A DNA stretch of 64,000 nt from a phage: the NCBI GenBank assembly GCA_025829515.1, contig GCA_025829515.1_4865.1; one strand, written 5' to 3'. The notes below the pieces were generated by a model that did no database searches, was not told the DNA's origin, and worked only from the letters and a program-made list of their open reading frames with translations. Positions 9,801-39,074 of this stretch are shown here, piece after piece. A program made the position numbers and the translations under genes. The number at the start of each line of letters is the position of its first letter. Position 1 is the stretch's first letter.

Positions 9801-9812
9801 CTGGAGGCGTTA

Positions 9813-19860: not shown

Positions 19861-19870
19861 GAGGGTATAG

Positions 19871-20713: not shown

Positions 20714-20723
20714 GGATTTTGAC

Positions 20724-21569: not shown

Positions 21570-21590
21570 TCCTGAGTAAAGGAAGTAAGA

Positions 21591-22502
21591 ATGAAACCTT
21601 TAAACAAAACGTCCGATCAGCTGGTTCTGGATTTTATTAATGAGAAAAACCCAGACGCAGAACTGGAACTTTCTAAAATAACGCTCGGCACACCGACCCC
21701 TATTGTCGATGAAGGTGCCGATCGCAATACCAGCATGACCCTGACTGCGAAAAAGAACTCCGGGTACATCGGTACTCAGGACGTGACTTATAATCGCCTG
21801 GAAGGCGGTGCGCTGTTCCGTAATGTAACCGCATACCTCGACGTTAAACTGCCGAAAACCACCACCGACCTGCTGACGACCCTGAACACCCAATACGGAT
21901 TGAAGCTGACCGAAGACGATATCGTTCCGGCGGCTATTCCGGAAAATACCAACCCGCCGCTGACTAACCCGAACGATCCGGACCCAGCACCGGTTGACCA
22001 TGTCATTACCTTCAAAGAAGACTGCTACGCTTATCTGGGCAGCATCCCGGTTAAAATCGGTGCTAAGCCTCAGGTTGGTGAACGTCTGAGTCTGGTGGTA
22101 ACACAAACCAAGCTCGACGGCCTGGTTTACCCAGATGGTCCAAGCGAAGCGAAGGGTCAGGGCTACATCTACTCTTACGGTGTAGACTGCACAGCAATCG
22201 CAGCATTCCTGAAAGTACAGACGAAAGGTGTTATCGCTGGCGACTCTGCATTCCCGGTTGAGCTGAATAAAGTTGTGCCGGAACTGTGGGTTGCATCTGA
22301 TGAGCCTGCGGATTATAACCTGAAAGGTGCTAACGTGTTGTACGTTGGTTCTACTACTGACGATGGCACTGCTTCAGGCGACGATCCTAAGAAACCGGTT
22401 GAAGGTGCAAACACTGCTTACAACCAGGTTCTGCTGCTGCAGCTGGATGACACTCTGTGCACCAACTTCCAGGGCGTCATGTACCTGCACTTTAATGCCT
22501 AA
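21591..22502 (+). CDS. paralog-family protein, short type, member 4
   Basis: close paralog of member 1 (GQGYIYSYGVDC, ELNKVVPELWVASDEP, TNFQGVMYLHFNA). Confidence 0.7.
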   Translation: MKPLNKTSDQLVLDFINEKNPDAELELSKITLGTPTPIVDEGADRNTSMTLTAKKNSGYIGTQDVTYNRLEGGALFRNVTAYLDVKLPKTTTDLLTTLNTQYGLKLTEDDIVPAAIPENTNPPLTNPNDPDPAPVDHVITFKEDCYAYLGSIPVKIGAKPQVGERLSLVVTQTKLDGLVYPDGPSEAKGQGYIYSYGVDCTAIAAFLKVQTKGVIAGDSAFPVELNKVVPELWVASDEPADYNLKGANVLYVGSTTDDGTASGDDPKKPVEGANTAYNQVLLLQLDDTLCTNFQGVMYLHFNA

Positions 22503-22509
22503 TTAGGCC

Positions 22510-22556
22510 TCGCTGGGAGGAGGAAATCCTCCTCCTGGCTACTCCTTTCTTTTTTG
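22510..22556 (+). terminator. intrinsic terminator
   Basis: gggaggagg-aaat-cctcctcc hairpin followed by T-run. Confidence 0.7.
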
Positions 22557-22571
22557 GCCGAGGAGGCTATT

Positions 22572-23411
22572 ATGGCTTTATATAGTCTGTCTCAGCGACA
22601 ATATCTGTACGATGCGATTAATGCCGAAAACCCGGATGCTGTTCTACCGATGGGTTTAGACAATGCTATCATCGGTACGCCGAAAGCAATCACACCGACA
22701 GCAAGCGGTGCCAATACTGAGATTATCATTCGTGGTCGTCAAGGTCGTGGCTATATCGGTCCTCAGACGTTCCGTTATAAGCGCTTGTCGCTGAACGACT
22801 TATTTAAGAACATGACACCTCAGGTAACTGCACCGAATGCCTACGGTTGGTTGAACGTGGAGTCGAAACGTACTGCGTTTGCGCAGAACCTGAACGGTCG
22901 TTATGGATTAAACCTGGTTGCAGACGATATCCCAGAACAATACGTTTATCTGAACGTAAACAACACGATGCGCATTAACGCTAGCTGTATCCAATACACT
23001 GGCAGCATCACCTTTATGTCTATCCGGGGTAAGAATAGTCTCGAAGACCTCGTGGTAAACGACATCTTGTTGGCTTTGAACCACCCTGCAGCAGCAAGCA
23101 CTGGTAAGAAATACATGGGCTTCTTGACGTACGGGGAAGACTTTACCGATGAAGTGCAGGTTATGGCCTCGTTTAAGAACGGGCGAATGGATGTAGGAAG
23201 TAACTTTGATTTGGGTTACACGTCCAATCTGATGGCCACATTGGTCGCACGTGGGGTACCGTCGTTTGATCCGACGAACTGCACAATTACCCGCTACAAA
23301 ACGAGTGAGTTGGCGACCGCCAATAAAGCGTACGATAACGTATTGCTGATTACCGGCATTCAGAACGACCCGAAAGTAATCGGCGAGTGTATGTTGCACT
23401 ACAACAACTAG
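22572..23411 (+). CDS. paralog-family protein, short type, member 5
   Basis: start moved to ATG at 22572 (gaggagg SD); C-terminal LHYNN. Confidence 0.7.
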   Translation: MALYSLSQRQYLYDAINAENPDAVLPMGLDNAIIGTPKAITPTASGANTEIIIRGRQGRGYIGPQTFRYKRLSLNDLFKNMTPQVTAPNAYGWLNVESKRTAFAQNLNGRYGLNLVADDIPEQYVYLNVNNTMRINASCIQYTGSITFMSIRGKNSLEDLVVNDILLALNHPAAASTGKKYMGFLTYGEDFTDEVQVMASFKNGRMDVGSNFDLGYTSNLMATLVARGVPSFDPTNCTITRYKTSELATANKAYDNVLLITGIQNDPKVIGECMLHYNN

Positions 23412-23421
23412 GAATTAGCGA

Positions 23422-24309
23422 ATGGCTATTTATCAACCTTCTAAAGACGTCCTGTTGGCAGCAGTGAACGCACAGAACTCGCTTGCTGTTAAGATGACTG
23501 ACATCATCTGGTCCTCGCCAAAGGACATCCGTGGTACGGAGAAGGAAACGCTGACTAACCGTAACACGCAAATTAAAATTACGGCAGATGGGGTAACGGG
23601 CTCTACCTGGTCGGGTAAGAAAAATGTCTTCTACAACCGCATGAAAGTCGAAGACTTGTTAGTGCTGATTGGTGACACGTTGGCGATCGGCCCATCCAAC
23701 GAAACCTTGTATGCGGCCATTCCTGGACTGAACCAACGTTACGGTTTTGTTCTGGAAGAAGCTGACCTGCAGGACGCAGATATCGAATGGAACGGTGATA
23801 AGACCGAAGGTACTGTGCGCGTTGTTGCACATCCGGAGTCTATCGGCTGGGTTGGACAGGCGACATTTAAAGTCGTGAAAGGCGATGAGTCGTTAGTCTC
23901 TGCGGTCACTACTAACGTCCTGACCGGTCTGAAATACCCGAACGGTCAGATGGGTTCCGAAACCGTTACTGCGGTCATTGCAGAGGTTTATTCCTACCCG
24001 TACAACTTCACCAAATACCGTGATGAGTTGCTGGCATACGTGCCGGGTATTCTGTCCGGGCAGCCGTTAACGGATATGGTTAACCTGCTGAAAGATATCA
24101 CGGGTACTGCATGGGTAGCGACCACCTCCGCTTCCTACGGTTTGGCGGGCGCGGAGGTTATCAGCGTTGGTCTGAATGACCCTGTTGCAATGCCGACAAA
24201 CGCGAAGTACAAGTATGCGCTGGTGTTGAAACTGCCTGTTACCTGTACCACCATCGTCGGAACGTTGTATCTCCAGTTCAACGATCTGGACGATCCAAGC
24301 GAGGTATAA
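23422..24309 (+). CDS. paralog-family protein, short type, member 6
   Basis: TNRNT, YGFVLEEADL, C-terminal LYLQFNDLDDPSEV. Confidence 0.7.
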   Translation: MAIYQPSKDVLLAAVNAQNSLAVKMTDIIWSSPKDIRGTEKETLTNRNTQIKITADGVTGSTWSGKKNVFYNRMKVEDLLVLIGDTLAIGPSNETLYAAIPGLNQRYGFVLEEADLQDADIEWNGDKTEGTVRVVAHPESIGWVGQATFKVVKGDESLVSAVTTNVLTGLKYPNGQMGSETVTAVIAEVYSYPYNFTKYRDELLAYVPGILSGQPLTDMVNLLKDITGTAWVATTSASYGLAGAEVISVGLNDPVAMPTNAKYKYALVLKLPVTCTTIVGTLYLQFNDLDDPSEV

Positions 24310-24312
24310 TTG

Positions 24313-25140
24313 ATGATCAACTATGCTAAGCCGTCAAACGAGTTGGTCTTTGACCTCATTAACCGGGATAACCCAAACCTACCTATTAAAGCGTCGCCGG
24401 CAAACTGCTACGTGGAGAAAGTGACACAGGTTCCCGTTAATGCAGCTTCCAACAACCGCAATACGTCGGCACGCTTGCGCGGTATTCAGGGTTCTGGATT
24501 TCGAGACGCAATCACCGTTTACTACGACCGTGTGAACTTAGCGCGGTTATTGCCGTGGGGGCCTTCCGTCCAGGCGCAGTTCGTCACGTTTGACGCACCC
24601 AACCTCCACTCAGCCTTTTCGGTGCTCTTGGATACCTACGGAGTAAACTTCTCCGCAATCGATATCCAAAACTACTCACTGTTTGGTGCCAATACCCCAA
24701 ATTACACCAATACACAGACCATTGCAGCGCTATCGACATCTCCGGCTTATATCGGTTCTGCGACGTTGCGTTATAACCGTGGTTTACCGGTACTAGACAC
24801 TTCGGTGAAATCGGATGTCTTGAATGCGATTCAAGAGCCTATTTCACCGTCTCTCGGTAAGAAGTGTATTGATTTGTTGACGTACGGTATTGACTTTACC
24901 GCGTATAAAAACCTACTGACAGTAGATGCTTCTGGCCTACCGCAGTGGGCTGGTTTGCGTAAGGTGTTGGATGACCTGGGTATTCCGAACTACGCGGGGC
25001 CACTGAACAGCAACACCGTTCAGGATGTGCCGACTTCCACCGCTCAGTTCGCTAACAAATCGTACGACCGCGTGGTTATCCAAACGGGTATCGATGAGGA
25101 AGGCGTGAAAGGCGTGGCGTACTACCACTATAACAGCTAA
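24313..25140 (+). CDS. paralog-family protein, short type, member 7
   Basis: start moved to ATG at 24313; NNRNT, ITVYYDRVNL, C-terminal YYHYNS. Confidence 0.7.
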   Translation: MINYAKPSNELVFDLINRDNPNLPIKASPANCYVEKVTQVPVNAASNNRNTSARLRGIQGSGFRDAITVYYDRVNLARLLPWGPSVQAQFVTFDAPNLHSAFSVLLDTYGVNFSAIDIQNYSLFGANTPNYTNTQTIAALSTSPAYIGSATLRYNRGLPVLDTSVKSDVLNAIQEPISPSLGKKCIDLLTYGIDFTAYKNLLTVDASGLPQWAGLRKVLDDLGIPNYAGPLNSNTVQDVPTSTAQFANKSYDRVVIQTGIDEEGVKGVAYYHYNS

Positions 25141-25187: not shown

Positions 25188-26600
25188 ATGCTATTTTACT
25201 CGAAGGAGTCGGCACTGCTTGTATACGACCAAGTCAATCGGGATAACCCTGATTTAGTTATTAAGCTGACGCCGGCTATCGCTGCTTTAACCAGTGGCCC
25301 AACCTCAGTTACGTTAAACCAACGTAACACCAAAGCTGTTTTCACCGGGTATCCAGGGACAGGTGTACAAGGTAATGTTACCGTGTACTACGACCGGATT
25401 AACCTGGCCACCTTATTTAATTTTGTGCCGACTGTGGCTATCAAAGACACAGTCTTAACGGTACGAGACGCGTTACCTGCAATAAACGACGCATTAGGAC
25501 TTACATTAGTTGCTTCTGATTTGCAGTCACCTGACGCAAGTTTACCTAAACCGAGCGTTTCGCCGCAGACGTTGAAATTAAATATCTCAGGCAATTGCCC
25601 TGCGTTTACAGGCAGCTTAACGATACGTTATACCGTCCCGAGTGGTGCAATTTACCCCGATTCTGGACCTGGCCCTAAAACGTTGCTGCAAGGTAACACT
25701 ATCGCGGGTTATTTCGGAACAACCAGAACTGCAGAGTTGTTTACACACTCTCAACTTCTTAATGCCACTATATCGGCCGGTGCGTTACCACCGGTACATT
25801 CTGGTGCCGAAGGTTGGTACAAGTTCTTTTACCAGGGTAGGGTTATTTACCTCCCGATCAGTCCTGTCGCTGGCTCCATCTCCTGGAATACGTTATATAC
25901 AAACGGACTCGTTTACGGAACAGACGATAACGGTAAATACCCTGCAGCGACGCCCGTTAACCAGGGACGCATCATTAGCTTTACAGGCGCAGACAACAAA
26001 AGGTTTTACTTCCGTGTTCGTCTACCTAGTGCCGGGAAAGACCCATACGTCAGCGGCACCCCAACTGCCGCTGAGTTAGCAGGTAGTGAGTTTGAGATGT
26101 TCAACTTTCTGTATAATGGAACGTGGGACAAACCGATTAACAGTTACTGGACGCTGTTCTGTTTATTGAAAGATACACTGAAGACCAACGTCGCCCATCA
26201 TCGCATGGCGACGTTGTCTGGAGCAAGTTGGACAAACTTAGAAAAATCATCGAGTGCGGGCAACTACTACTGGTTCCCGGTGCTGGAGTTGGTGGATAAG
26301 TCCACAGTTACCTTGGGTTTAGAAGATATCCACGGTACGGCAGATTACAGTCTCCAACCGTGCAGCGTGTCCGCAGAAAACACATTTAGTCTCAAGCCGT
26401 TAGTGCTCGGTAATCCGGATACTACCGATTTCGAACCGGTAGTTGTTACTTCAGAAAACAGTTTCGCACTGCATCCGCCTGCTTTAATGCTGCCGAAGAC
26501 AGTCGACTTCCAACCTATTGCGGCTACCGCTGAAATGTATACGCCCCCTGACAAGACAACGTTAACGTCTCTTAACGGTGAACTGGACGGCTTTAAGTAG
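25188..26600 (+). CDS. paralog-family protein, long type (anchor N-domain, GPGP core domain, linker, C-terminal NGELDGF tag), module 1
   Basis: NQRNT, VTVYYDRINL, DSGPGPKTLL...GYFG...ELF, YWFPVLELVD, ends SLNGELDGFK. Confidence 0.7.
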   Translation: MLFYSKESALLVYDQVNRDNPDLVIKLTPAIAALTSGPTSVTLNQRNTKAVFTGYPGTGVQGNVTVYYDRINLATLFNFVPTVAIKDTVLTVRDALPAINDALGLTLVASDLQSPDASLPKPSVSPQTLKLNISGNCPAFTGSLTIRYTVPSGAIYPDSGPGPKTLLQGNTIAGYFGTTRTAELFTHSQLLNATISAGALPPVHSGAEGWYKFFYQGRVIYLPISPVAGSISWNTLYTNGLVYGTDDNGKYPAATPVNQGRIISFTGADNKRFYFRVRLPSAGKDPYVSGTPTAAELAGSEFEMFNFLYNGTWDKPINSYWTLFCLLKDTLKTNVAHHRMATLSGASWTNLEKSSSAGNYYWFPVLELVDKSTVTLGLEDIHGTADYSLQPCSVSAENTFSLKPLVLGNPDTTDFEPVVVTSENSFALHPPALMLPKTVDFQPIAATAEMYTPPDKTTLTSLNGELDGFK

Positions 26601-26611: not shown

Positions 26612-27610
26612 ATGTCTTTTACTTTGCGTTGGAAAAATCCAAACGTAATCTCTACGGTAGTAAAAATCTACCGTGATGTTAAAGATATCACACCAAGCGC
26701 TTTGCCTGAACCGATTGCAACGCTCTCAAACGGCGAGACAGAATGGCGTGATACCACCGCCACACCAGGCGCAACCTATTATTACCTTCTGACGGTAACC
26801 GCCAACGGTAAAACAGTGGCATCGTCTAGCCAGAAATATACCATTGAACTGAAGCGGGGAATCGGTCCAATGACTATTCTAAACGGTGACGACCGTTTAG
26901 GGTTTATGGGTGCGGTTCCTTACGACGAACAGTGGCTTCCGTCGCAAATGCCACCTGCATTTTTGGCGATGTTCCCTAACCTACTAACCGATCGTGTGGC
27001 GTTGTATAAATTTACCCGAAACGGGAAGATCTATTACATGCTATCTAGCACGTCGCAGTTCCCGAATACGCCTGTGGACTGGGCTTCCCTCTATCAAGCT
27101 GGTTTAGTCTACGGTACAGGCGATGCTGGCCCAGAGAACGGCCATGGAACGCTACCGGCCACTCCACAAGACGCTAAGATAGTCCACAGAGGGGATACGT
27201 ACATTATGCGTCTTCCTCGCGGCCTGACGACGTCTAGCGAGTCTCCTGCGTATCCTTTCGTGGCTGACTACAATGGGAAAACCCACGATGAAATCGCTTC
27301 TCTAACCAACCCGTGCGAGTATAACGATTTACTTTACACGATGGTTAACGAGGTGCCGAAGAAACAACGTTGGGCTAACTGGGCAACAATCGGTTATACT
27401 TATCTGGGACAGGGTACTTTGGGAACCTTGGCACAGTATTTCGGCGGTGGTGTTCTCTGTATGGAACACGACACCGCGGAAGACCGTGTGCTCCATCGTG
27501 GTATTTTTAACAATGCCGGTGGAACACCCGTATCCACGATTCAGCGTATAAACTATTTATCACCCACCACGAAAGGGCGCTACTACCCTATCTTTGAACT
27601 GGTCGAGTAA
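26612..27610 (+). CDS. module 1 B-type protein (fibronectin-III-like N-domain plus core domain)
   Basis: N-terminus RWKNP...IYRD...TYYYLLTVTANG (FN3-like pattern, inferred); core ends YYPIFELVE. Confidence 0.7.
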   Translation: MSFTLRWKNPNVISTVVKIYRDVKDITPSALPEPIATLSNGETEWRDTTATPGATYYYLLTVTANGKTVASSSQKYTIELKRGIGPMTILNGDDRLGFMGAVPYDEQWLPSQMPPAFLAMFPNLLTDRVALYKFTRNGKIYYMLSSTSQFPNTPVDWASLYQAGLVYGTGDAGPENGHGTLPATPQDAKIVHRGDTYIMRLPRGLTTSSESPAYPFVADYNGKTHDEIASLTNPCEYNDLLYTMVNEVPKKQRWANWATIGYTYLGQGTLGTLAQYFGGGVLCMEHDTAEDRVLHRGIFNNAGGTPVSTIQRINYLSPTTKGRYYPIFELVE

Positions 27611-27619
27611 GGGGCAGTC

Positions 27620-28543
27620 ATGACTATACGGTTAAGCTGGCCGTCCCAAGCCAGCAAAGGTCTTACCGCGATTGAAATCTACCGCAAGGAAGGATGGAAC
27701 GCAACAATCGACGTTTACAACCCAGGCACACCCCACGCCACCTTATCCGGTAGCGCGGTAGAGTTCGTAGATAATATCGATACCCTGACGAAGAATACAA
27801 CTTATCGTTACTGGGTAGCTGCTGTGAAAGATAATGAACGACTTATCGGCAATCCGATTACGCAAGGGTTCTATCCGGACACTGGACCGGGGCCACAAAC
27901 TATTTTGCGTGGCGATTGGGCGTCAGGCTATTTCGGTACGGTATCTAATACCGAGTTCTTTAATACTGCCGAGTTAAAACTCATGTTAACCGCGCAGCAG
28001 GGAAACATGTTTACTTACGACCCTCAGGAATGGCACAAGTTTATTTTCCGTGGGCGAATTGTCTTCTTCCCAGCGACGATGCATTCGAAAAGCAACTCGG
28101 TACAAATGGCGTATCAGTACGGCATGATGTACGGGACCGATGATGTCGGAAGTATTGTTCCGCAGGGAGCCACGGCGACTAAACAAGATTGTAAGGTCAC
28201 GAAGGATGGTCGTACGTACCGTATCCGATTACCTTACGCAGTCCCGTACGACGCGGCACTCTCAGGACAGGATTACAACAACGGTGAATGGCGAAACACA
28301 ATGGGCCGTTTGTATCCTGTCGGTGCACAGTACGCAGCCCTCGGTCTTGGTGCGATTGACTCACTTGAAAGACAAGGCGCGACTGCGCAGCCGAATGAGT
28401 CAGGTGCCGCTGTATTAGCTCCTTTGTGGAGCAACAACATATTCGCTTATGCGTATGGCACCGTGCCTATGGGGATTAGTAACACCGCAGGTGTCGGGAA
28501 CTCGGCCACGATATTCTTTGCTTTTGAATTAGTCTTACCGTAA
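27620..28543 (+). CDS. module 1 C-type protein (FN3-like N-domain plus GPGP core domain)
   Basis: IEIYRK...TTYRYWVAAV, DTGPGPQTILRGDWASGYFG, ends FAFELVLP. Confidence 0.7.
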   Translation: MTIRLSWPSQASKGLTAIEIYRKEGWNATIDVYNPGTPHATLSGSAVEFVDNIDTLTKNTTYRYWVAAVKDNERLIGNPITQGFYPDTGPGPQTILRGDWASGYFGTVSNTEFFNTAELKLMLTAQQGNMFTYDPQEWHKFIFRGRIVFFPATMHSKSNSVQMAYQYGMMYGTDDVGSIVPQGATATKQDCKVTKDGRTYRIRLPYAVPYDAALSGQDYNNGEWRNTMGRLYPVGAQYAALGLGAIDSLERQGATAQPNESGAAVLAPLWSNNIFAYAYGTVPMGISNTAGVGNSATIFFAFELVLP

Positions 28544-28556
28544 TGGAGTAAATACC

Positions 28557-29975
28557 ATGGGGTTGTATACAGAACCTTCAATGGAACTGCTCTGCCAACA
28601 AATTGTGCGTGACAATCCCGGTTTAGCAGGAAAAATCACCCCTGACTCCATTGGGGTCAGGGGTGTTCCTGTTGCGAAAAACGTTAACGGACGAAACACT
28701 CAGATTACGTTGGTAGGAAAACCCGGTAAAGGATTTGCTGGGGAAATAACGGTATATTACGACCGGTTGAATCTGGCCAGTCTATTTAAGTCTGGCCCGA
28801 ATATGGTGAGTATTCCACGTAGCGCACAAACCCATGCGGAAGCGTTACCGGCGTTCAATGAATTGAACGGGTTGAACTTAACCGCGAGTGACATCACCAG
28901 TCCAAACGTTGCATTAATGAAATACGCTACGCCGGAAACTGTAACTCTGACGGCGCACGCTAACTCCTTGTGTTATACCGGGTCATGCAAGATGACCTAT
29001 GTTTACGAACCGATTGCGATGTATCCGAAGTCGGGTCCTGGGCCAAAAGGATTAATGGCCGGTAATGAGTTATACGGATTCTTTGGGCTGGTAAGCGCGG
29101 AAGAGTTATTCACATCTGATGAAATGGTGTATGCCCTCTATAACGGCACCAACTGGCCTAACCGCTACGCTATCAAGTGGCTCAAATTCTTTCTGAATGG
29201 GGCGGTAGTGTTTGTTCCGACCCGTGCGATTTGCAACGTTACCTGGGCAGACCTGTACAACAAGGGTGCAATATTTGATTCCGGAGACGCAGGACCTCGC
29301 CCGAAGTCGACTTACACACCTGTCGATGTTGAACAGTTGAAATACATGGTAAAACGGGATGATGAAGGAACGCATTATTTCAGAATGTCTATCCCGTATT
29401 ACACCGAGAACGCCGCCGCGCCTGATTGGAGTAAACCGCCGTCAATCACCTCTATCCTGTCACTGACCAGCAAATTGGGGTCGGTGAACGTATATGGGGA
29501 GTGGGGAACTCTTAGCACGACTGATGCTAACTTCCTGGATTACGTGTGGTTACGACATCAGTTCGGTGCCGACCAAGCGTATTACCAGTCTATCAGTGGG
29601 AGCTATCGTTCATACACCTACATCTACACCTCTTCTGGCTTTTGGCCAATCCTGGAGATGTTTGATGTTGCCAATGAACCTGTGCCGTTGATTGACGAAG
29701 GTGCAGAGCTAACATGGGCACCGTCCGTGGTTACTCTGACGGACATCGACCAAAATGAATCGCTTCGTGTGGTGCCTATTACGGAAACCTCCGCTGCAGC
29801 GAATCCACGTCCTCTGCTTGCCGCGACGGACAATGATGAACGTGCATATTCCGTCGCGGTAACAGGCATGGCTAGCGTTAAGATTAGACCGATTATTCTC
29901 ACGACTGACCAAATCGCCCAACCTTCAAAAATTACTCTGGGCGATACTAACGGTGAGTTGGATGGATTCCAATAA
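28557..29975 (+). CDS. paralog-family protein, long type with NGELDGF tag, module 2
   Basis: ITVYYDRLNLASLF, KSGPGPKGLMAGNELYGFFG, ends TNGELDGFQ. Confidence 0.7.
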   Translation: MGLYTEPSMELLCQQIVRDNPGLAGKITPDSIGVRGVPVAKNVNGRNTQITLVGKPGKGFAGEITVYYDRLNLASLFKSGPNMVSIPRSAQTHAEALPAFNELNGLNLTASDITSPNVALMKYATPETVTLTAHANSLCYTGSCKMTYVYEPIAMYPKSGPGPKGLMAGNELYGFFGLVSAEELFTSDEMVYALYNGTNWPNRYAIKWLKFFLNGAVVFVPTRAICNVTWADLYNKGAIFDSGDAGPRPKSTYTPVDVEQLKYMVKRDDEGTHYFRMSIPYYTENAAAPDWSKPPSITSILSLTSKLGSVNVYGEWGTLSTTDANFLDYVWLRHQFGADQAYYQSISGSYRSYTYIYTSSGFWPILEMFDVANEPVPLIDEGAELTWAPSVVTLTDIDQNESLRVVPITETSAAANPRPLLAATDNDERAYSVAVTGMASVKIRPIILTTDQIAQPSKITLGDTNGELDGFQ

Positions 29976-29987
29976 GAGGTAACGACA

Positions 29988-30974
29988 ATGGCTTTTACAA
30001 TTCGTTGGACGAACAATAACCCTGGGGCTTCGACCGTGAAGCTGTACCGCGACACCAAACCTCTGGTGCGTACGGCATTACCTGAACCTCTGGCAACGTT
30101 CACTGACGGGGAAACTGAGTATACTGACCGAACGGCGATACTGGGGACAACGTATTACTACATGACCACCGTGACAGTGGGAAGCCGGACACTGTTCAGT
30201 CCGCAGAAATCAATTCTGATTCAGAACCGTCGCGGTATCGGCATCGTGGCTCCACAGTACGGTGATGACCGCTTTGCGTATTACGGGTATGTGGCGTACG
30301 GTGAATTACCTAGCGCGGGTGATTATCCGCCAGGGTTTGTGGCCCTTTCTGGATACGACCCAACTGTTAAGCCGGGCTTGATGAAGTTCCAGCTAGACGG
30401 TAAAATTCTGTATCTGTTTAGTGGTCTTCGTGTGAACGGCAACACGCTGTATAGCCGTGATGCGATTTATAACGCGGGTTTGCTGTACGGTGTGGCGGGA
30501 CCTGGTCCGGAAGGCGGTCATGGCGATTTACCTGACGTTGACCAGGCTGGGGAGTTTACGTGGTTGGGTGACCGCTATCGGATGCGCCTGCTGCGCGGTT
30601 TAACACTCGACAGTGAAAGCCCGGTCATGACACTCGATGCACAGTGGAACGGTAAACTCCATGACGCGTCACCGTATACTGCCGATAGCGAATACAACCG
30701 ACTCATCTATGGGATAAGTAGCTGGTTCCCAGAAAAGAAAAAAGTGATGTCCCTGATAAAGTGGTCGAACTCCAGCATATTCGGAAGTGGATCGCTGGTG
30801 GCAGGCCGTGGGGCGCATTGTCAGGAGTTTGACCCAGACCGTAAGTTGGGGCTGACGCGCGGATGGGCGGCGGCGGATTCCACTGATACCGTGGATAACC
30901 TCCAGCGTATACAACATGTCCCTGGTGCGACCGGCGGTATTTGGATTCCAGTAATCGAGCTTATCGAGGATTAA
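29988..30974 (+). CDS. module 2 B-type protein
   Basis: paralog of 26612-27610; ends IWIPVIELIED. Confidence 0.7.
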   Translation: MAFTIRWTNNNPGASTVKLYRDTKPLVRTALPEPLATFTDGETEYTDRTAILGTTYYYMTTVTVGSRTLFSPQKSILIQNRRGIGIVAPQYGDDRFAYYGYVAYGELPSAGDYPPGFVALSGYDPTVKPGLMKFQLDGKILYLFSGLRVNGNTLYSRDAIYNAGLLYGVAGPGPEGGHGDLPDVDQAGEFTWLGDRYRMRLLRGLTLDSESPVMTLDAQWNGKLHDASPYTADSEYNRLIYGISSWFPEKKKVMSLIKWSNSSIFGSGSLVAGRGAHCQEFDPDRKLGLTRGWAAADSTDTVDNLQRIQHVPGATGGIWIPVIELIED

Positions 30975-30976
30975 TC

Positions 30977-31876
30977 ATGCCTATTACATTAAACTTTGCA
31001 CAACGGAAGCCACAGGCGCTCGATAACATTGAAATCTATCGCAAGACGCCGGGCAACGCCACCATTGATGTTAATGCACCGGGAACGCCTCTGGCAACCC
31101 TTCCGGGTGACGCTACATCGTACGAAGACAACGCTGTGGAAAACAACACCACTTACCGTTATTGGATTGCTGCGGTTAAAGACGGTGAGCGTGTCTTCAA
31201 CACCCCTACCGCCCAAGGGTTCTTTTTAGACACCGGGCCTGGCCCCCAGAAACTGTTATACGGCGACTGGCACGCTGGATACTTTGGAACAGTAACGCCA
31301 GCAGAGTTATTCACTAACGCGGAACTGAACAGCCTCGTGGTGAATATGTTCAGTTCCGCCGTTGGTGCCTGGCATAAGTTCATTTACAAAAACCGTATTC
31401 TGTTTATGTCCGATAACTCGATAATATACGCTAGCCCGCAGTTCATTTATAACCAGGGGCTGATGTACGGCCAGGATGGCAACGGATATGTGCCGAGCTG
31501 GGCTAGTGCACGTAACCAACGCCGCACGGTGACGAAAAACGGTTACGAATACGTGGTGCGCTTGCCGTATTTGTTCGACTACAAATACTGGACGTCTTTC
31601 GTTGGAGGCGGTAACACCGAGTTGTATCTCGACGGTGAGTGGTTTAACACCTTCGCGCGCCTGTACAACTACAGTGGGCAGTTTCCGCGCTTTGACGACC
31701 TTCCGGTCGGTTCAATCGATTCGGTTACTGCCCAACAATCTGCATTCTTTGCGGCTATGAATAACTCGTTCAGTCAGTGGTACAACCGTCCACCTTACCC
31801 AGAGTCGCCGACATGGAGTAACTACGGTACCACTACAGTGCGTTCTATTGCGGTACTTGAACTCGTTCTGCCTTAA
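30977..31876 (+). CDS. module 2 C-type protein
   Basis: start moved to ATG at 30977 (gagga SD); paralog of 27620-28543; ends AVLELVLP. Confidence 0.7.
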   Translation: MPITLNFAQRKPQALDNIEIYRKTPGNATIDVNAPGTPLATLPGDATSYEDNAVENNTTYRYWIAAVKDGERVFNTPTAQGFFLDTGPGPQKLLYGDWHAGYFGTVTPAELFTNAELNSLVVNMFSSAVGAWHKFIYKNRILFMSDNSIIYASPQFIYNQGLMYGQDGNGYVPSWASARNQRRTVTKNGYEYVVRLPYLFDYKYWTSFVGGGNTELYLDGEWFNTFARLYNYSGQFPRFDDLPVGSIDSVTAQQSAFFAAMNNSFSQWYNRPPYPESPTWSNYGTTTVRSIAVLELVLP

Positions 31877-31887
31877 CAGGAGACTTC

Positions 31888-33330
31888 ATGGGATTGTATA
31901 GCGCACCCGAACTGGAATTACTCTGCCAACAAGTCGTAAGGGATAACCCTGAACTCGCAGGAAGAATCAGCGCTGATTCGATTGGGGTGAGGGGTGTTCC
32001 TGCCGAGACCACTAAGAATGGTCGTAACACGGTAATTACGTTGGTAGGTAAACCCGGTAAAGGTTTCTCTGGGGAGTGCACGGTTTATTACGACCGTTTA
32101 ACATTATCAGATCTATTTAAAATAGCTCCGCGCGTCTACGTACCACAAACGGCCAAGACCGTGCGGGATCTTCTCCCAGCTCTACGTGATTTATACGGTG
32201 TTTGGTTATCTGATAGCAGTGTACAGTCGGTAGACGCGCCTATCAAATCGCTGGCAACGCCAACACGTATTAATTTAACCGCGTATAATAGCGTATGCTA
32301 TCGCGGCTATATCCCGGTCGATTATTTGAATGAAGCCGTAGGGTACTATCCAGATTCTGGGCCAGGCAATAAATATTTGTTGGCAGGGGACAGCACAAAC
32401 GGATACTTCGGTCACGTTTCTCAGCAAGAGTTATTTACCTTTGCTGAACTAAACAACCTAATTCGTCCTGATGTTTCCCCAACGAAAATGACTTTCGAGT
32501 GGTTGAAATTTTTCAAGGACGGTAAGATTGTTTATCTACCGACTACCGGAACGTTAACAGCAACCTGGACGGCCCTTTATCAAGCGGGTGCCATTTTCGG
32601 TACAGGTGACGCTGGTCCGTATCCAGACGGTATCGAACCTGTTGACCAGGCTTTGATTGTCACGAAAACTGAGAATAACAAGACGCATTATTACCGTGTC
32701 TCCGTTCCGGTTAGCCCTGATTTATCAAAGGCCACGCCGTTGTGGCTTATTTCACAACTCGGTGACGGTTCTACGGGTGGCGACTGGGCAAATGACACCA
32801 CGTTAACCAGAACCACCGTCTTCTTCACGCAACAACTGTTAACCGGGGGTAACCCTGTTAAAGTACAACGTTGCAATATGCGCGGTGGCTCAGTTGAATG
32901 GGTAACCCTTGCAGATACCACTTACTGGTGGCCTGTTTTAGAGGAAATCAATAAGGACGACATCGTCTTACCTTTAGCTGATGTGGAAGGGGATGTTGTG
33001 TGGCGCGTTAGGGTTATTCCTAATGTACCATCACCACAACCTGATAGCATTCGCCCTCTTGCAGTCGAGGTTGCGACAACAGATGCGCCGAGACCTCTAG
33101 CAACAACTGCGGAACAGGTGGAAGAACCTATCAGCCCGATTGTGGTGGGTGAACCAAACGTCGATACTGCGCTGCCGTTATCGACAGTGTCGAAGAGCGT
33201 AGGTACAGTTAGGCCGATGGTTGTACTTGAACCACACGTCGACGCACCGCGTCCACTACCGCCTACTCAGGCAGAACCTCCACTTAAAACAGATTTAGCA
33301 ACCGCGAACGGTGAGTTGAACGGCTTCTAA
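31888..33330 (+). CDS. paralog-family protein, long type with NGELNGF tag, module 3
   Basis: CTVYYDRLTLSDLF, DSGPGNKYLLAGDSTNGYFG, Pro-rich DAPRPL repeats, ends ATANGELNGF. Confidence 0.7.
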   Translation: MGLYSAPELELLCQQVVRDNPELAGRISADSIGVRGVPAETTKNGRNTVITLVGKPGKGFSGECTVYYDRLTLSDLFKIAPRVYVPQTAKTVRDLLPALRDLYGVWLSDSSVQSVDAPIKSLATPTRINLTAYNSVCYRGYIPVDYLNEAVGYYPDSGPGNKYLLAGDSTNGYFGHVSQQELFTFAELNNLIRPDVSPTKMTFEWLKFFKDGKIVYLPTTGTLTATWTALYQAGAIFGTGDAGPYPDGIEPVDQALIVTKTENNKTHYYRVSVPVSPDLSKATPLWLISQLGDGSTGGDWANDTTLTRTTVFFTQQLLTGGNPVKVQRCNMRGGSVEWVTLADTTYWWPVLEEINKDDIVLPLADVEGDVVWRVRVIPNVPSPQPDSIRPLAVEVATTDAPRPLATTAEQVEEPISPIVVGEPNVDTALPLSTVSKSVGTVRPMVVLEPHVDAPRPLPPTQAEPPLKTDLATANGELNGF

Positions 33331-33340
33331 GGAGTAACAG

Positions 33341-34339
33341 ATGGCTTTCACACTACGCTGGAAAAATGAAAATCCGGCAGGTTCAATTGTTAACATTTAT
33401 CGGGGCACGGCTAAAATAAATACAGCCGCATTACCAGCCCCTATTGCAACTTTAAGTAATGGCGAAACGGAATGGACGGACGAAACCGTTATTCTTAACA
33501 CCCGTTACTGGTATCTTTTAACAGTAACTGTTAACGGTCGTACCGTAGGTAGTCCACAAAAATCCATTGTCATTAAAAACCGTCGTGGTGTGGGTGGCGT
33601 CGACCAGATTAACTATTCCGATACTGACGACTTGGCGTTTCTGGGGCAGTTGCCGTTCGAAGAACAGATGACCTATGACGCGTTGCCTGCAGGCTTTCGT
33701 GCATTAACAGGGATATCGGGCACGGGCACGCTAATCATGAACAAGTTTTATCGTCATGGTAAAGTTTACTACATGATGAACAGCGGCGGACGATTTAACT
33801 CTACACTTTACTCGTGGAATGACATTTATAACGCGGGGCTTGTGTACGGTGTTGATGGATTTGGTCCTGATAACGGACGTGGGGATTTGGCAGGTGTTGA
33901 CCAGAGTGGGTTGTTTGAATGGCAAGGCGACACCTATCGGATGCGATTGCTGCGCGGTTTAACCGACGGGGACGAACCGACAGTAATGACATTGGATGAA
34001 TCGTTGCGAAACGCAGACCATGATGACTTGGAATATGGTCGCTGCGAATATAACGATTTTGTTTATCCGTTCGGAGAATGTATCCCTAACAAACAAATGC
34101 TCCCTAACTGGACTAATATTAGTCCAGCGTCCATTTATGGGAGCGGTAGCGCTTACCAAGGCAAAGGTTTCTTGTGCCAAGAACGTGATCCTGAATCGGG
34201 ATTAGTTCTGGTTCGCGGGTCTGCGCCTATCGATTCAAGCATAACCAATACGTCGAAACGTAACCTCTCCCAAGTTACGTTAGTTGATAGTGCTGAGAAG
34301 GTCGGTTTGTACGCATTCGTTATCGAGTTAGTGGAGTAA
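33341..34339 (+). CDS. module 3 B-type protein
   Basis: paralog of 26612-27610 and 29988-30974; ends YAFVIELVE. Confidence 0.7.
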   Translation: MAFTLRWKNENPAGSIVNIYRGTAKINTAALPAPIATLSNGETEWTDETVILNTRYWYLLTVTVNGRTVGSPQKSIVIKNRRGVGGVDQINYSDTDDLAFLGQLPFEEQMTYDALPAGFRALTGISGTGTLIMNKFYRHGKVYYMMNSGGRFNSTLYSWNDIYNAGLVYGVDGFGPDNGRGDLAGVDQSGLFEWQGDTYRMRLLRGLTDGDEPTVMTLDESLRNADHDDLEYGRCEYNDFVYPFGECIPNKQMLPNWTNISPASIYGSGSAYQGKGFLCQERDPESGLVLVRGSAPIDSSITNTSKRNLSQVTLVDSAEKVGLYAFVIELVE

Positions 34340-34342
34340 AAC

Positions 34343-35245
34343 ATGTCGATTATCTTAAACTGGAAACAACAGTCAGGTCAGACTTTAGATTCCATTGAAA
34401 TCTATCGTTACGACAACCCTAGACAAAGTGTTAACCCAGTAGCACCGGGGGAACCCATTGTAACACTACCAGGTAACACAACGACGTACGAGGACAAGAC
34501 CACCGAAGCGTATAAAACGTATCAATATCGCATCGTGGCGGTAAAGGGCACTGAAAAGGTTATGGGGCTGCCGATTGTACAGGGCGACTTTCCAATGACA
34601 GGGCCCGGCCCACAGGAACTTATTCGTGGCGATTGGCATCGTGGCTACTTTGGCACACTGACAAACAAAGAATTTATTCTTAACCATGCCGAGCTGAATG
34701 GTTTAATTGGCTTTAATGCCTGGAACCAAGCTCCAACATTGTTCCATAAATTCGTTTTCAAAGGACGCATTCTGTTCATTCCTGACACGGTGACCCGTTT
34801 AGGGACGTCGTGGGAAGAACAATACCGGCAAGGTCTGGCCTGGGGAACAGATGACTACGGTTTCCCGCCAGGGGGCGTCACTACCACTAACCAGCGTCGG
34901 ACATTTAATAAAGACGGTTACGAGTATGTGGTACGCTTGCCTCGACTCGGAGACTACAGTTATGGGCACAGCACCTACCTAAGCAGCGGTGGTTATTTTC
35001 AAGACGGCGAGTGGCACAACACGTTCGCAAGCTTGTTCCGGTACGCGGGCGTCGTAAGACGTTTTGGCGACTTACCGATGCGCTCCGGCGGTAGTCCAAC
35101 CGATTCAAGCGCAACATTGTTTGCCAACGGTCGTGACATCTACAACGCCTGGTACTATCGCAGCAACTCACCAGACTCACCATCGTATACCTATTCGACC
35201 GATAGCGCGTCGGTAGTCCACGTTATCGAATTGGTTCTTAGCTAA
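34343..35245 (+). CDS. module 3 C-type protein
   Basis: paralog of 27620-28543; MTGPGPQELIRGDWHRGYFG; ends HVIELVLS. Confidence 0.7.
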   Translation: MSIILNWKQQSGQTLDSIEIYRYDNPRQSVNPVAPGEPIVTLPGNTTTYEDKTTEAYKTYQYRIVAVKGTEKVMGLPIVQGDFPMTGPGPQELIRGDWHRGYFGTLTNKEFILNHAELNGLIGFNAWNQAPTLFHKFVFKGRILFIPDTVTRLGTSWEEQYRQGLAWGTDDYGFPPGGVTTTNQRRTFNKDGYEYVVRLPRLGDYSYGHSTYLSSGGYFQDGEWHNTFASLFRYAGVVRRFGDLPMRSGGSPTDSSATLFANGRDIYNAWYYRSNSPDSPSYTYSTDSASVVHVIELVLS

Positions 35246-35256: not shown

Positions 35257-35553
35257 ATGGGGTTTTACTCATCCACTGCACTTGAGCTGTTGTGTCGGCT
35301 CATTCAGCGGGATAATCCCCAACACGCAGGTCGAATCAGCGCAGATTCAATTGGGGAGTGTACGATCTATTACGATAAGTCGTTAAGCAGTAACACAGTG
35401 GCCGATGTTACCACCGCATCCAACTCGTTCGCTAATAAAGCGTACGGCCGCGCGGTTATCCAAACTGACGTCGAAGCAGCTGGAGTTAAAGGGATAGCGT
35501 ACTTCACCATAACAGCTAAAAATAGGCCCCGAAGGGCCTATTTTCTTTTTTAG
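35257..35553 (+). pseudogene. chimeric, frameshifted remnant of the paralog family
   Basis: first ~33 codons match long-type N-termini, then jumps to a short-type C-terminus; a 1-nt difference relative to the YYHYNS-stop ending removes the stop and the frame runs into the terminator hairpin. Confidence 0.6.
35521..35553 (+). terminator. intrinsic terminator
   Basis: aataggcccc-gaag-gggcctatt hairpin followed by ttcttttttt. Confidence 0.8.
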
Positions 35554-35562: not shown

Positions 35563-36882
35563 ATGATCAACTATAACAAACCTGTCATGCAGCTGGTTTG
35601 GGATCAGATTAATCGTGATAACCCGCAGCTCAAGAAACCACTCAACGCAACCAACGTGGCGTTATTACAAGGTCCTTTAACCAATGCCTTGCGCGATGGC
35701 CGCAACAGCCGTATAGTGGTAAACGGATTACAGGGTGGCGGTTACAGCGGTAAGATGGACATCTACTACGACCGCTTAAACCTTTCGCAGTATTTTAAAG
35801 GCGTCAGCGTACCGGTTAAAGTACCTTATCGGGCGACGTCCTACCGCGACATCATCGACCGGATTTCCGCAGCTTGTGGGCTGGTGCTTACTGCTGACGA
35901 TTTAACGTATCCTGACAGCCAGTTTGCAATGATCACTGTGGCAACGGGCGATCGGACGGTGGCGATTAAATCGGATAACCCCGCATTCACGGGTCACATT
36001 CCTATTAGCTTTATTCGTGAAGAGCCCAGCTTTGCCGACTTGTACCACACCACCGAAACCGGAGCTTGGGAACCCATGGATGTTTACAGCACGGTCTATC
36101 GACTCGACTGGAGCATGTACACCCAACAGATAATCAATATTCCAATGGGTACCCCGCTGCGACTAAACAGTAACTCGTACATGACCCAGTTCATCGCGGC
36201 GCTGTCGGCATGGTCGGGCATCCCGTTCACTATCGGTAATGCTGCTACCGATAACCCGTATGACCTCTATGGGTATGTCGCTACACGCAATAACAACCCA
36301 GGCTTAGACCCTGATATGCGTGGGGAGTACAATTACTGCGTGAAGTTGACGCCACCTGAGGATATGGGTAATCTCCGTCGTCCGTTCTTCTTGCACTTTG
36401 GTCCGAAAAATAACGTGGCCTATTTGGCGCAGGAAAAGGACGTCGAACGTTATGCGCGTTACATGAGGTTCCGGGAAACCAGCTCAAATTCGATGAGCGT
36501 CACGTTGTATCAAAACGAGTACGTGTTGACTCGGGCAGAATCGCCTGAAACTGCGGATGATTTAACGGGTTCCCCGTATGGCACTCGATACTGTACCGGG
36601 AGTATTCGACGGCTGATGCAACACGCGTTTCCGACCGAAGAGATGTTCCAAGAAAGTATTGCTAACCGACGTCGGGTACTGTACCACACTGCTTACACCA
36701 CCACGACATCAGCTATTACTTACCAGGGACTATACCGTAACGGATACCAATCCAAACAAATGACGAGCCTCTACTCGAATTACTGTAACTATTTCATCTA
36801 TTACGACCCAAGCAAAGGCGGCTATATGGTCTACAGTCCATATAGCAAAACCGCCCCGGTCCCTTGGTATCCAGCGCTATAG
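35563..36882 (+). CDS. paralog-family protein with a distinct C-terminal domain
   Basis: N-terminus MINYNKP...INRDNP...DIYYDRLNLS is family-like; C-terminus YYD..G.M...PY.K.AP.PW shared with the next gene. Confidence 0.65.
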   Translation: MINYNKPVMQLVWDQINRDNPQLKKPLNATNVALLQGPLTNALRDGRNSRIVVNGLQGGGYSGKMDIYYDRLNLSQYFKGVSVPVKVPYRATSYRDIIDRISAACGLVLTADDLTYPDSQFAMITVATGDRTVAIKSDNPAFTGHIPISFIREEPSFADLYHTTETGAWEPMDVYSTVYRLDWSMYTQQIINIPMGTPLRLNSNSYMTQFIAALSAWSGIPFTIGNAATDNPYDLYGYVATRNNNPGLDPDMRGEYNYCVKLTPPEDMGNLRRPFFLHFGPKNNVAYLAQEKDVERYARYMRFRETSSNSMSVTLYQNEYVLTRAESPETADDLTGSPYGTRYCTGSIRRLMQHAFPTEEMFQESIANRRRVLYHTAYTTTTSAITYQGLYRNGYQSKQMTSLYSNYCNYFIYYDPSKGGYMVYSPYSKTAPVPWYPAL

Positions 36883-36896
36883 ACTAAGGTGTCACC

Positions 36897-39074
36897 ATGT
36901 CCTACACTCCTGATTTAGTGGCGACCGTGATTCGGTCGCTCAACCGTAAAAACGCGGTCGCCAAAGCAGTAGACCCCGCTAACGTACGCCTGGTGTCCGT
37001 GGCGCATCGTGACGAAAAAACCCTAGACGTCACACTGACAGGGGGTCCGGGGTATTCAAGTTACGGTCAAATTACGGCCCAAGTCACGAAGCAAAATATT
37101 GCTGATTATTTCGCCAAGGTTAAGTTGGATGCCATTCCCACTTGTGCGTCCATCCACGAACTGTTGCCGCATTTAGACACTCTACTAGGGATTACCTTTT
37201 TAACTGACGACTTTGAAGACCTGCCTATCACTTGGACAAACAATGCTGCGTGTATCACGTTCCAGGCGAAACAGACAAGTCTTATCTGGTACGGCAGCCA
37301 AACGCTAGATGTGATAAACGGTGACGTGGATATCAACACCGTCTACACTGTTACCAACATCATTCTCACGCTAAAGGCTGCGAATAAACAGCAGTGGATT
37401 AACTTCTACTCTAATGCAACCAAACGGATCGTGGATCTTGATAAAGTCGATGTCAGCTCCCCGATGTCCCCGGAGGATATAGGCCAAACCTCTGCGTATA
37501 ACAGCGTCGTAGCTTTGACCGCTAGACCGGGGAGCGGGATGTTTGGAACGAAGTATGTGTTCTTTTCACGTAACAAACTCGAGACATATGCAGGCAAAAC
37601 CACATACGTCCCGGATGATTTCACCGGTAGCCTGCACGATGCTCTGGCCATCGAGACACTCGGCATTCGGAGTGTTTTTGATGTAAACGAAATTGCTCCT
37701 GTAGAGAACCTGGCAGGCGAGTGGCCGAGACAAGTGCAATTGGCACCCGTAGAGGGTTCGTACAAAGTCATGGGCAGTGCCACGTTGAATGTGGCACGCT
37801 ATCAAGATAACGAGCAAACCCTTAACCTGAACTACACAACTACGTCGCAACTTTCGGACAGCTACTGGGCCACAACGTTGACCAACCATGCGGCGTGCGG
37901 GCGTTTGTTTGTTAACGTGACCGTAGATGCGGGGGCTTTCGTTTATCGCGACAGCAACCTGAAACCGACGTTCGTTATCGACGAATTGCCGCAAATTGGC
38001 GAGGTGGTTTGGAACTTCGTTAACCGGGGAACCATTCTTGGTCGTGGTGGTTCGGGTATGGTCTACTCTATGCCTGCGAACACATCAGCGGACGGAGCTG
38101 ACGCAATCCACATTACCGATGCCTTCCGCGGCAAAGTCACCATCGAAAACTACGGCACCATCGCCGGAGGTGGGGGCGGGGGCGACTACTATGCGTTTAG
38201 CACCACCAAGATCGGTGGAGCTGGTGGTGCGCCACTCGGGACAGGCGCGGTGGTGCCCAGCGGCACCAATAACCGTAACGGCTTAGCTGGGTCCCGTGAC
38301 AAAGGCGGTGCTACTCAGTTAGTCGTCGCACAATTTACCGGCTACCAGAGTCGCTACTATGGCGGTCCGGGTGGGGATTGGGGCCAGCCGGGACGATATA
38401 CAGCGTTCGAGCAATGGAACACCCCGGCTACCGGCTCGCCGATCTATGTCTACGGTCGTGAAGACGGGATGTCATGGACTCGCCCTGGGATGGCAGGCGA
38501 AGCCGTCGGTGGGAATAAAAGTATCGTCAACTGGGTATCCGTCGGAACGGTGAAACCGAATGTCACCAACGAGTACCAAGAGTTCCTCGACTACCTCGCA
38601 GATTTAGATGCCAACCGATTGGCCAGTGCGGATGGGATAGATAAAGTCACCGACCCAACCAAGCCTGTAGTTGTGGAGTTCTTAGGTACGATTATTTCAG
38701 GTACGCTGTTCCAAAAGCAAAACATACCCGGCGGTTTGGTGGGAACACCATACGGCGATGCTGTAGCCAACTTACCAGCCACCACATTGTTTGGTATCAT
38801 GGCACACTGTGTATCGGAGTTTGATATTGTGCACGACACTTGGCGTTACAACCGCGCGGTGATGTTCACGCTAAAACCCGCACCTACCGGGGCGATTAGC
38901 CTCGCTGTGGAACGCAACCGGGTGAAATCGGCTACCAGTAGTGCACCGGTGGAGAAGTTCTACGTCGATCGCTTCGTGTATTACGATGCGTATCTCGGTA
39001 AAATGATGGAATGTAATCCGTATACCAAATCTGCCCCTAAACCGTGGGTGCGGCCAACGATACCGTTATCGTAA
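36897..39074 (+). CDS. paralog-family protein with Gly-rich region (725 aa); candidate receptor-binding protein
   Basis: Gly-rich tract IAGGGGGGDYYAFSTTKIGGAGGAPLGTG; C-terminal domain shared with 35563-36882; stop is followed in frame by FNEELDGFKA-stop. Confidence 0.65.
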   Translation: MSYTPDLVATVIRSLNRKNAVAKAVDPANVRLVSVAHRDEKTLDVTLTGGPGYSSYGQITAQVTKQNIADYFAKVKLDAIPTCASIHELLPHLDTLLGITFLTDDFEDLPITWTNNAACITFQAKQTSLIWYGSQTLDVINGDVDINTVYTVTNIILTLKAANKQQWINFYSNATKRIVDLDKVDVSSPMSPEDIGQTSAYNSVVALTARPGSGMFGTKYVFFSRNKLETYAGKTTYVPDDFTGSLHDALAIETLGIRSVFDVNEIAPVENLAGEWPRQVQLAPVEGSYKVMGSATLNVARYQDNEQTLNLNYTTTSQLSDSYWATTLTNHAACGRLFVNVTVDAGAFVYRDSNLKPTFVIDELPQIGEVVWNFVNRGTILGRGGSGMVYSMPANTSADGADAIHITDAFRGKVTIENYGTIAGGGGGGDYYAFSTTKIGGAGGAPLGTGAVVPSGTNNRNGLAGSRDKGGATQLVVAQFTGYQSRYYGGPGGDWGQPGRYTAFEQWNTPATGSPIYVYGREDGMSWTRPGMAGEAVGGNKSIVNWVSVGTVKPNVTNEYQEFLDYLADLDANRLASADGIDKVTDPTKPVVVEFLGTIISGTLFQKQNIPGGLVGTPYGDAVANLPATTLFGIMAHCVSEFDIVHDTWRYNRAVMFTLKPAPTGAISLAVERNRVKSATSSAPVEKFYVDRFVYYDAYLGKMMECNPYTKSAPKPWVRPTIPLS

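Follow-up and report, generated by a model that had tools for sequence, protein, structure and literature searches.

A core domain shared by nine virion proteins encoded as three tandem gene triplets in an SPN3US-type jumbo phage

We analysed a stretch of phage DNA of 64,000 nucleotides (GenBank assembly GCA_025829515.1, contig GCA_025829515.1_4865.1), referred to below as the window, which belongs to an SPN3US-type jumbo phage (Seoulvirus, Chimalliviridae). Nine genes of the window are a threefold tandem duplication of a cassette of ~3.35 kb encoding three paralogous virion proteins, here called A, B and C. A core domain of 215-255 amino acids is common to all nine. With a probability that we put at about 0.55, these proteins are modular surface adhesins. 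The core follows a fibronectin type III (FN3) spacer in the B and C proteins; in the A proteins it is preceded by a DUF7941 N-terminal module and followed by a disordered repeat tail ending NGELxGF.

Results

Three tandem A-B-C triplets

At the DNA level, the 8.6-kb region running from B1 to C3 shares 97.5-98.7% identity with Salmonella phage SPN3US, Proteus phage 7 and their relatives. It corresponds to SPN3US_0146-0153 (gp146-153), annotated as 'putative virion structural protein 13-19', with gp145 immediately upstream. The six B and C genes are named 'glycosyl hydrolase' in two GenBank records (Proteus phage 7 and MET_P1_082_240). Including the gp145 homologue, the genes form three tandem A-B-C triplets (SPN3US gp145-153), tightly packed and with every open reading frame (ORF) on the + strand:

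A1, 25188-26600, + strand: gp145 homologue, 470 amino acids, just upstream of the 8.6-kb region; DUF7941 module at residues 1-150, core at ~152-370, disordered tail at 373-470 ending NGELDGFK (Pfam, AlphaFold2 and hhalign)
B1, 26612-27610, + strand: gp146 homologue, 332 amino acids; FN3 at ~1-78, core at ~80-332 ending ELVE
C1, 27620-28543, + strand: gp147 homologue, 307 amino acids; FN3 at 1-84, core at 85-307 ending ELVLP
A2, 28557-29975, + strand: gp148 homologue, 472 amino acids; DUF7941 module, core and tail
B2, 29988-30974, + strand: gp149 homologue, 328 amino acids; FN3 and core
C2, 30977-31876, + strand: gp150 homologue, 299 amino acids from the ATG; FN3 and core
A3, 31888-33330, + strand: gp151 homologue, 480 amino acids; DUF7941 module, core (a GPGN variant ending LEEI) and tail
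B3, 33341-34339, + strand: gp152 homologue, 332 amino acids; FN3 and core
C3, 34343-35245, + strand: gp153 homologue, 300 amino acids; FN3 and core

For C2 the ATG start of the SPN3US annotation was used; the ORF list also holds an upstream TTG at 30941. Paralogy is visible at the DNA level with a period of 3.33-3.37 kb, and the array is therefore a tandem triplication of a three-gene unit. When the window was scanned with our own hidden Markov model (HMM), the core was confined to these nine genes. B1 matched phrog_1062 (E 8e-58).

The core domain is homologous in A, B and C proteins

An earlier note on this DNA, made from the sequence alone, had proposed that the A, B and C proteins share a core of about 190 amino acids with a set of conserved landmarks and a terminal E-L-V motif. 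The shared core was borne out, with E values far beyond chance, and its length was revised upwards to that given above. Core-against-core BLASTP gave E values of 1e-12 to 1e-17 between A and C, down to 1e-11 between B and C, and ~1e-5 between A and B. Alignment of the C family with the A family by hhalign (probability 99.9%, E 1.9e-33) paired residues 81-306 of C1 with 152-369 of A1, and spanned the entire core as far as the terminal P-x-x-E-L-V strand. The C family aligned with B1 over residues 1-233, the N-domain and first half of the core, with probability 99.3% (E 7e-21).

The landmarks were visible in a multiple alignment, some of them being specific to one subtype. G-P-G-P is present in A1, A2 and C1-C3, but is G-P-G-N in A3 and G-[IV]-G-x in the B proteins; W-x-K-F is found in A1-A3, C1 and C2, but as F-H-K-F in C3 and as K-F only in the B proteins. 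Y-x-M-R-L-L-R-G-L is present, but belongs to the B type rather than to the family in general. Invariant in all nine cores are both glycines of GxG, the glycine of GYFG, the glutamate of E-L-F, the K-F pair, Y..G, a further G, a Q and the glutamate of E-L-V. The first strand (G-Y-F-G) and the last (P-V-x-E-L-V) are the most conserved parts. Within sets of orthologues, column entropy was 2.26-2.31 bits in the C-terminal half of the core and 1.53-1.61 bits in the N-terminal half, the last strand being the most conserved part of all (0.94-1.29 bits). Judged from these alignments, such a pattern is that expected of a fixed scaffold bearing a specificity surface. The motifs C-Q-E ... R-G ... W-x-P-V-L-E-L of the wider family are kept in the B-type cores; the A and C cores have diverged in that half.

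FN3 domains precede the core in B and C proteins

By superposition on solved FN3 domains, the N-terminal ~80 amino acids of the B and C proteins qualify as an FN3 domain, a seven-stranded beta-sandwich of ~90 amino acids, in agreement with the FN3-like N-domain proposed for these proteins from sequence patterns. A profile of 120 family members matched the FN3 domains of the pectate lyases Pel3 (E 5e-6) and PelI (E 1e-4) and the Fn3-like protein 3mpc (E 1e-3), and the B-type N-domain was linked to the C-type N-domain through hhalign. No match to Pfam fn3 (PF00041) was found at E <= 1 in the nine proteins or the 120 family members. The FN3 modules matched (Pel3, 4u49; PelI, 3b4n; 3mpc) are bacterial ones of carbohydrate-active enzymes, whereas here the FN3 domain belongs to virion proteins and is followed by a domain that is non-catalytic and probably lectin-like.

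Predicted fold of the core

Models of C1 (with 37 homologues) and A1 (with 34 homologues) were made with AlphaFold2. The C1 model had a mean predicted local distance difference test score (pLDDT) of 93.7 and a predicted template modelling score of 0.89. In the A1 model the module (residues 1-150) and the core (155-370) were confident, and the tail (373-470) was disordered with pLDDT below 50. The succession of elements is identical in the two cores: a strand, a helix, a hairpin, a second helix and hairpin, a region of loops and short helices, and 4-5 strands leading to E-L-V. The core is an alpha/beta domain, and the A and C cores, homologous from end to end, are modelled with a common fold. 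Two outcomes that would have told against the earlier note, the lack of an FN3-like sandwich and the lack of a fold common to the cores, were both absent from structure prediction and fold search.

Sequence searches of the PDB with C1, A1, and the nine-core, A-family and 120-member profiles matched FN3 only and returned nothing for the core. No Pfam model covered the core in the nine proteins or the 120 family members, and NCBIfam gave no match. When the A1 model was used in a fold search, nearly all matches other than DUF7941 were proteins of the C-type-lectin fold, with scores that were weak and query ranges that were not reported. The highest were the C-terminal domain of Legionella Lcl (5.7), TvpA (5.5), CarF (5.4), PvdO (5.3) and the C-terminal domain of Bdellovibrio Bd2740 (5.1); below them came many natural killer receptor and CLEC domains (~4), Mtd (3.9), TaqVP (3.7) and an FGE paralogue (3.6), with EgtB/OvoA and PorK also among the matches. 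The best matches outside DUF7941 thus comprise receptor-binding domains of the C-type-lectin fold (BPP-1 Mtd, Treponema TvpA, Thermus TaqVP, Bd2740 and Lcl) together with FGE, PvdO and EgtB. Foldseek with the same model gave phiKZ gp127 (E 5e-5), PvdO (8e-3), TvpA (0.11), FGE (0.65) and CarF (1.1). The last four were aligned over 280-326 columns, more than the 150-amino-acid N-terminal module can supply, and the core must therefore take part in these matches.

These models lead us, at moderate confidence, to place the core tentatively among C-type-lectin-like folds of the kind seen in FGE and in the variable proteins of diversity-generating retroelements (DGRs). The earlier note had called the fold unknown; given this weak resemblance, it is probably not entirely so. 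Like the binding domains of the C-type-lectin fold, the core has a scaffold that is conserved and a C-terminal half that varies. It is ~100 amino acids larger than a canonical C-type-lectin-like domain, and unlike that domain it has no conserved cysteine pairs or calcium-site motifs. A DGR target of the Mtd/TvpA type was considered and rejected, there being no pair of template and variable repeats: direct repeats between 18.5 and 39.5 kb were of paralogue level only (<=83% identity) and none lay at the 3' ends of the cores, a reverse transcriptase not having been searched for.

The fold matches to FGE, PvdO and EgtB, and the product name on the six B and C genes, raise the question of whether the proteins are enzymes, either glycosyl hydrolases or depolymerases as annotated, or FGE-like oxidases. 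We regard this as very improbable. No catalytic domain, of a glycoside hydrolase or otherwise, was matched by sequence in Pfam, NCBIfam or the PDB, and the 'glycosyl hydrolase' annotation is thus unsupported. By sequence, the proteins are tied to carbohydrate-active enzymes through the non-catalytic FN3 module alone, which probably accounts for the stray annotations. The catalytic cysteines of FGE are not conserved, and no cysteine or histidine is invariant in the nine cores or the wider family.

A proteins carry a DUF7941 module and a repeat tail

Pfam DUF7941 (PF25613) matched A1, A2 and A3 with 110.6, 105.5 and 79 bits against a cut-off of 27 (A1, E 1e-31). The matches cover positions 1-153 of the 276 of the model, that is, an N-terminal module without the C-terminal domain of the family. 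Pfam found no DUF7941 in the B or C proteins, which in this respect differ from the DUF7941 filament proteins of Chimalliviridae, Goslar gp22/gp23 and phiKZ gp126/gp127 (bioRxiv 10.64898/2026.04.21.720040; PMC13250141). The A-type N-termini match the structure of the phiKZ gp127 N-terminal domain. In related phages it is through this module that such proteins polymerise, head to tail, into filaments. Purified Goslar DUF7941 protein forms filaments, and a baseplate-anchored 'fibre cloud' for host recognition has been proposed (bioRxiv 10.64898/2026.04.21.720040); in the phiKZ structural atlas each lobe of the outer baseplate is tipped by one gp127. A putative host-recognition domain follows the module in the A proteins, as it does in Goslar gp86, gp92 and gp161. 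The payloads named for Goslar are carbohydrate-binding, glycoside hydrolase and leucine-rich repeat (LRR) domains; the core is not among them.

The A1 tail contains two E-N-x-F-x-L-x-P...D-F-x-P units and the A2 and A3 tails contain R-P-[LIM] units, with four RP[LM] motifs in A3. All three tails end ...K-[TI]-x-L-x-x-x-N-G-E-L-x-G-F (NGELNGF in A3). We also considered the tail as a DUF7941 linker plus C-terminal domain; this is unsupported, the tail lying outside the coverage of the Pfam model. A2 has 472 amino acids here against 498 in SPN3US gp148, the difference being one 26-amino-acid PRPL repeat unit, which lies between two P-R-P-L motifs (29800-29810; locus L001, 10946-12442). As exactly one unit is missing, repeat copy number in the disordered tail varies between strains. 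One further protein ends in the C-terminal motif of the A tails, as seen in its translation and with a tail HMM:

gp160 homologue, 41967-42494, + strand: 175 amino acids, ending ...KTDLSTTNGELDGFV

SPN3US gp160 is highly abundant in virions, as judged by counts of peptide-spectrum matches (PSMs; Table S2, PMC10052503). We regard the NGELxGF end peptide as a good candidate docking motif in the assembly of DUF7941 filaments.

The core family and its cassettes in other phages

Searching with the nine-core profile yielded 1,868 clusters at 50% identity with E <= 1e-3, 1,260 of them with E <= 1e-10. Architectures were counted in the top 147 representatives. An FN3 domain preceded the core in 84, a single core stood without FN3 or DUF7941 in 36, and ~20 had 2-8 cores in tandem. 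The combination of DUF7941 module, core and tail was found in five of the 147, all five ending NGEL[DNS]GF. Partner domains included LamG, Kelch, Big_6/Big_13 and BspA-type LRR, as well as two Lcl_C domains (P0186) and Mtd_N (P0140). In P0140, Mtd_N precedes the core, which stands at the place of the lectin-fold domain of Mtd; this protein is encoded on a 19.6-kb phage contig and adjoins a second core protein, followed by a DUF4376 protein. Also outside the jumbo phages, core proteins adjoin tail-fibre genes on viral contigs of 36 and 150 kb. A pattern scan of genome contigs with the P0140/P0179/P0186 alignment gave 50 pattern matches, none of which was confirmed.

The core was found by tblastn in 129 GenBank phage records, and nearly all of the matches listed were to jumbo phages of Erwinia, Salmonella, Pseudomonas and Ralstonia. 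The near-identical Salmonella phage SPLA3 (locus L009, 4523-12838) has two triplets; exactly triplet 3 is absent, and the gp154 homologue directly follows C2. A unit consisting of an anchor-type core protein and two FN3-core proteins occurs twice in PhiEaH1 (Iapetusvirus; L003, 3732-9684) and once in RSL2 (Chiangmaivirus; L010, 6649-9764). In Noxifer (L011, 5771-9574) one anchor-type protein and three of the FN3-core type come straight after the tail sheath and tail-fibre genes. The anchor-type first protein of PhiEaH1, RSL2 and Noxifer has an N- or C-terminal extension and no DUF7941 module.

Homologues from Salmonella phages SPFM6-SPFM20 (P0038-P0043, P0074-P0079 and P0083) had odd lengths and, despite high HMM scores, BLAST alignments over no more than 4-23% of the query, which is suggestive of frameshifts or wrong gene calls in those records.

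Genes flanking the triplets

The triplets are flanked on both sides by genes for further DUF7941 proteins:

Seven tandem short DUF7941 paralogues, 19063-25140, + strand: 265-303 amino acids, homologues of gp138-144
Two more DUF7941-headed proteins, 35563-39074, + strand: homologues of gp154 and gp155 (Pfam DUF7941)

The seven short paralogues match Pfam DUF7941 over its full length (E 5e-68 to 4e-87) and are presumed to be the filament protomers that would carry the A-type proteins. The gp154 homologue (35563-36882) has a DUF7941 head and a C-terminal domain of unknown type. The gp155 homologue (36897-39074, 725 amino acids) joins a DUF7941 N-terminal module to a GP38 tail-fibre-adhesin domain (PF05268; 66 bits, cut-off 25) that occupies residues 373-553.

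A 98-amino-acid chimeric ORF (35257-35553) separates C3 from the gene that follows. Its N-terminus is A2/A3-like, and its C-terminus is that of a short DUF7941 protein. The gap that holds it is 318 nucleotides here and ~180 in SPN3US and SPLA3. The ORF looks like a recombination scar from gain or loss of a cassette.

Far from the main array, an ORF at 9744-10343 matched the DUF7941 N-terminal HMM weakly. From its position, ~12 genes upstream of the gp138 homologue, we take it to be perhaps the counterpart of SPN3US gp122. That protein was suspected to be a further member of paralog family B (see below) by Ali et al. 2017 (PMC5694885).

Incorporation into the virion

All nine proteins have been detected by mass spectrometry in purified SPN3US particles (PMC5694885, PMC10052503). 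SPN3US gp83, gp138-154, gp161 and gp237 make up 'paralog family B', for which no function was given (Ali et al. 2017, PMC5694885). The genes are the same, gp145-153 being 97-98% identical in DNA, and they had thus already been grouped as paralogues and virion components. That grouping was made by whole-protein PSI-BLAST; DUF7941, FN3, core and tail were not separated, and the triplet cassette was not noted. In the literature searched, we found no paper describing FN3-plus-core proteins or the core domain as such.

Paralog family B was expected to be in the head because it is retained in a tailless mutant (Ali et al. 2017, PMC5694885). Normalised PSMs of gp138-155 in tailless 255(am107) heads were equal to or higher than those in wild-type virions (Table S2, PMC10052503), and these proteins were accordingly labelled head proteins in SPN3US proteomics, gp155 being labelled 'Head' despite its GP38 adhesin domain. 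Across the array (19063-39074), published SPN3US mass spectrometry therefore places every DUF7941, FN3-core and GP38-bearing protein in the head, whereas work on phiKZ and the Goslar model anchor DUF7941 proteins at the outer baseplate.

The head assignment is compatible with the proteins being Hoc-like decorations of the capsid surface, which would display FN3 and lectin-like modules on the head and whose job would be not to recognise the primary receptor but to stick to mucus, biofilm matrix or decoy surfaces. Capsid decoration proteins, T4 Hoc for example, typically contain FN3 or Ig-like domains. Besides the PSM levels in tailless heads, this explanation is favoured by an unassigned Hoc-like density at the centre of each hexamer in cryo-electron microscopy of the SPN3US capsid, amounting to 260 copies. 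A crude estimate from PSMs per mass relative to the major capsid protein, however, suggests that each of the A, B and C proteins is present in tens of copies and not in at least 260; phiKZ gp127 is modelled at the outer baseplate; and filaments that assemble by themselves might be purified along with heads to which they are not attached. Capsid decoration is in our view an unlikely explanation.

The nine might also be proteins of the head interior, or ejection proteins, that enter the capsid with the DNA and are injected into the host cell, with an intracellular role for the core. Abundant members of paralog family B were listed as 'Head ejection?' along with the expectation that all members are in the head (Ali et al. 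2017, PMC5694885), and the head assignment was repeated in 2023 (PMC10052503). Their domains are nevertheless of extracellular or adhesive kinds (FN3 of the pectate-lyase type, the lectin-like core, and GP38 on a neighbouring paralogue), core homologues elsewhere sit with tail-fibre genes or behind Mtd_N, and no family member is among the SPN3US head proteins reported to be cut by the prohead protease (PMC5694885). We therefore hold ejection to be improbable.

Discussion

If the nine proteins are modular surface adhesins, as we prefer to think, the A proteins would be built into or onto DUF7941 filaments through the DUF7941 module and the C-terminal peptide. The B and C proteins would join A as partner subunits, perhaps as an A:B:C unit, and all three would be exposed on the surface of the particle. 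The variable half of each core would bind a ligand on the host surface or in the environment, most likely a glycan, in line with the earlier proposal of the core as a candidate ligand-binding domain. For the virion the outcome would be many weak and diverse attachment points. The GP38 domain on the neighbouring DUF7941 protein supports a role of the whole array in host recognition.

Several points weigh against modular adhesins. Comparison by hhalign of a 155-sequence core profile with the two Lcl_C domains of P0186 gave a probability of 0.1% and hence no sequence link, and neither the nine cores nor the wider family have a conserved EPN/QPD, WND or calcium-site motif or a disulfide cysteine. 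The B and C proteins have no DUF7941 through which to enter the particle. The assignment of the SPN3US proteins to the head fraction conflicts with the model of fibres anchored at the baseplate. Ligand binding is something that we infer for every member of the family.

A more speculative extension, which we consider unlikely, is that each A-B-C triplet makes a heteromeric adhesin, for example a pseudo-trimer in which the three lectin-like cores have diverged, mounted through A on capsid-borne DUF7941 filaments, and that triplets are gained and lost as cassettes that retune adhesion. If this were true, the 21-member SPN3US paralog family B would be a head-borne combinatorial attachment system, and a head-borne triplet adhesin would bring the head-fraction proteomics into line with the fibre-cloud model for Goslar.

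The genes described here encode known virion proteins of a known paralogue family; what is new is the picture at the level of domains, which is itself of a familiar kind. The core constitutes a large family of phage domains that has no representative in Pfam, NCBIfam or the PDB, and is labelled only 'unknown function' or 'virion structural protein' in PHROGs. The result sharpens the contradiction between head-attached and baseplate-attached DUF7941 filaments, and the amber-mutant genetics of SPN3US, together with natural two-triplet relatives such as SPLA3, make that question directly testable. If the core were named as a lectin-like binding module, hundreds of jumbo-phage 'virion structural proteins' would be annotated, along with many genes adjacent to tail fibres in smaller phages, and SPN3US paralog family B, about a quarter of the protein species of the virion, would gain a testable function.

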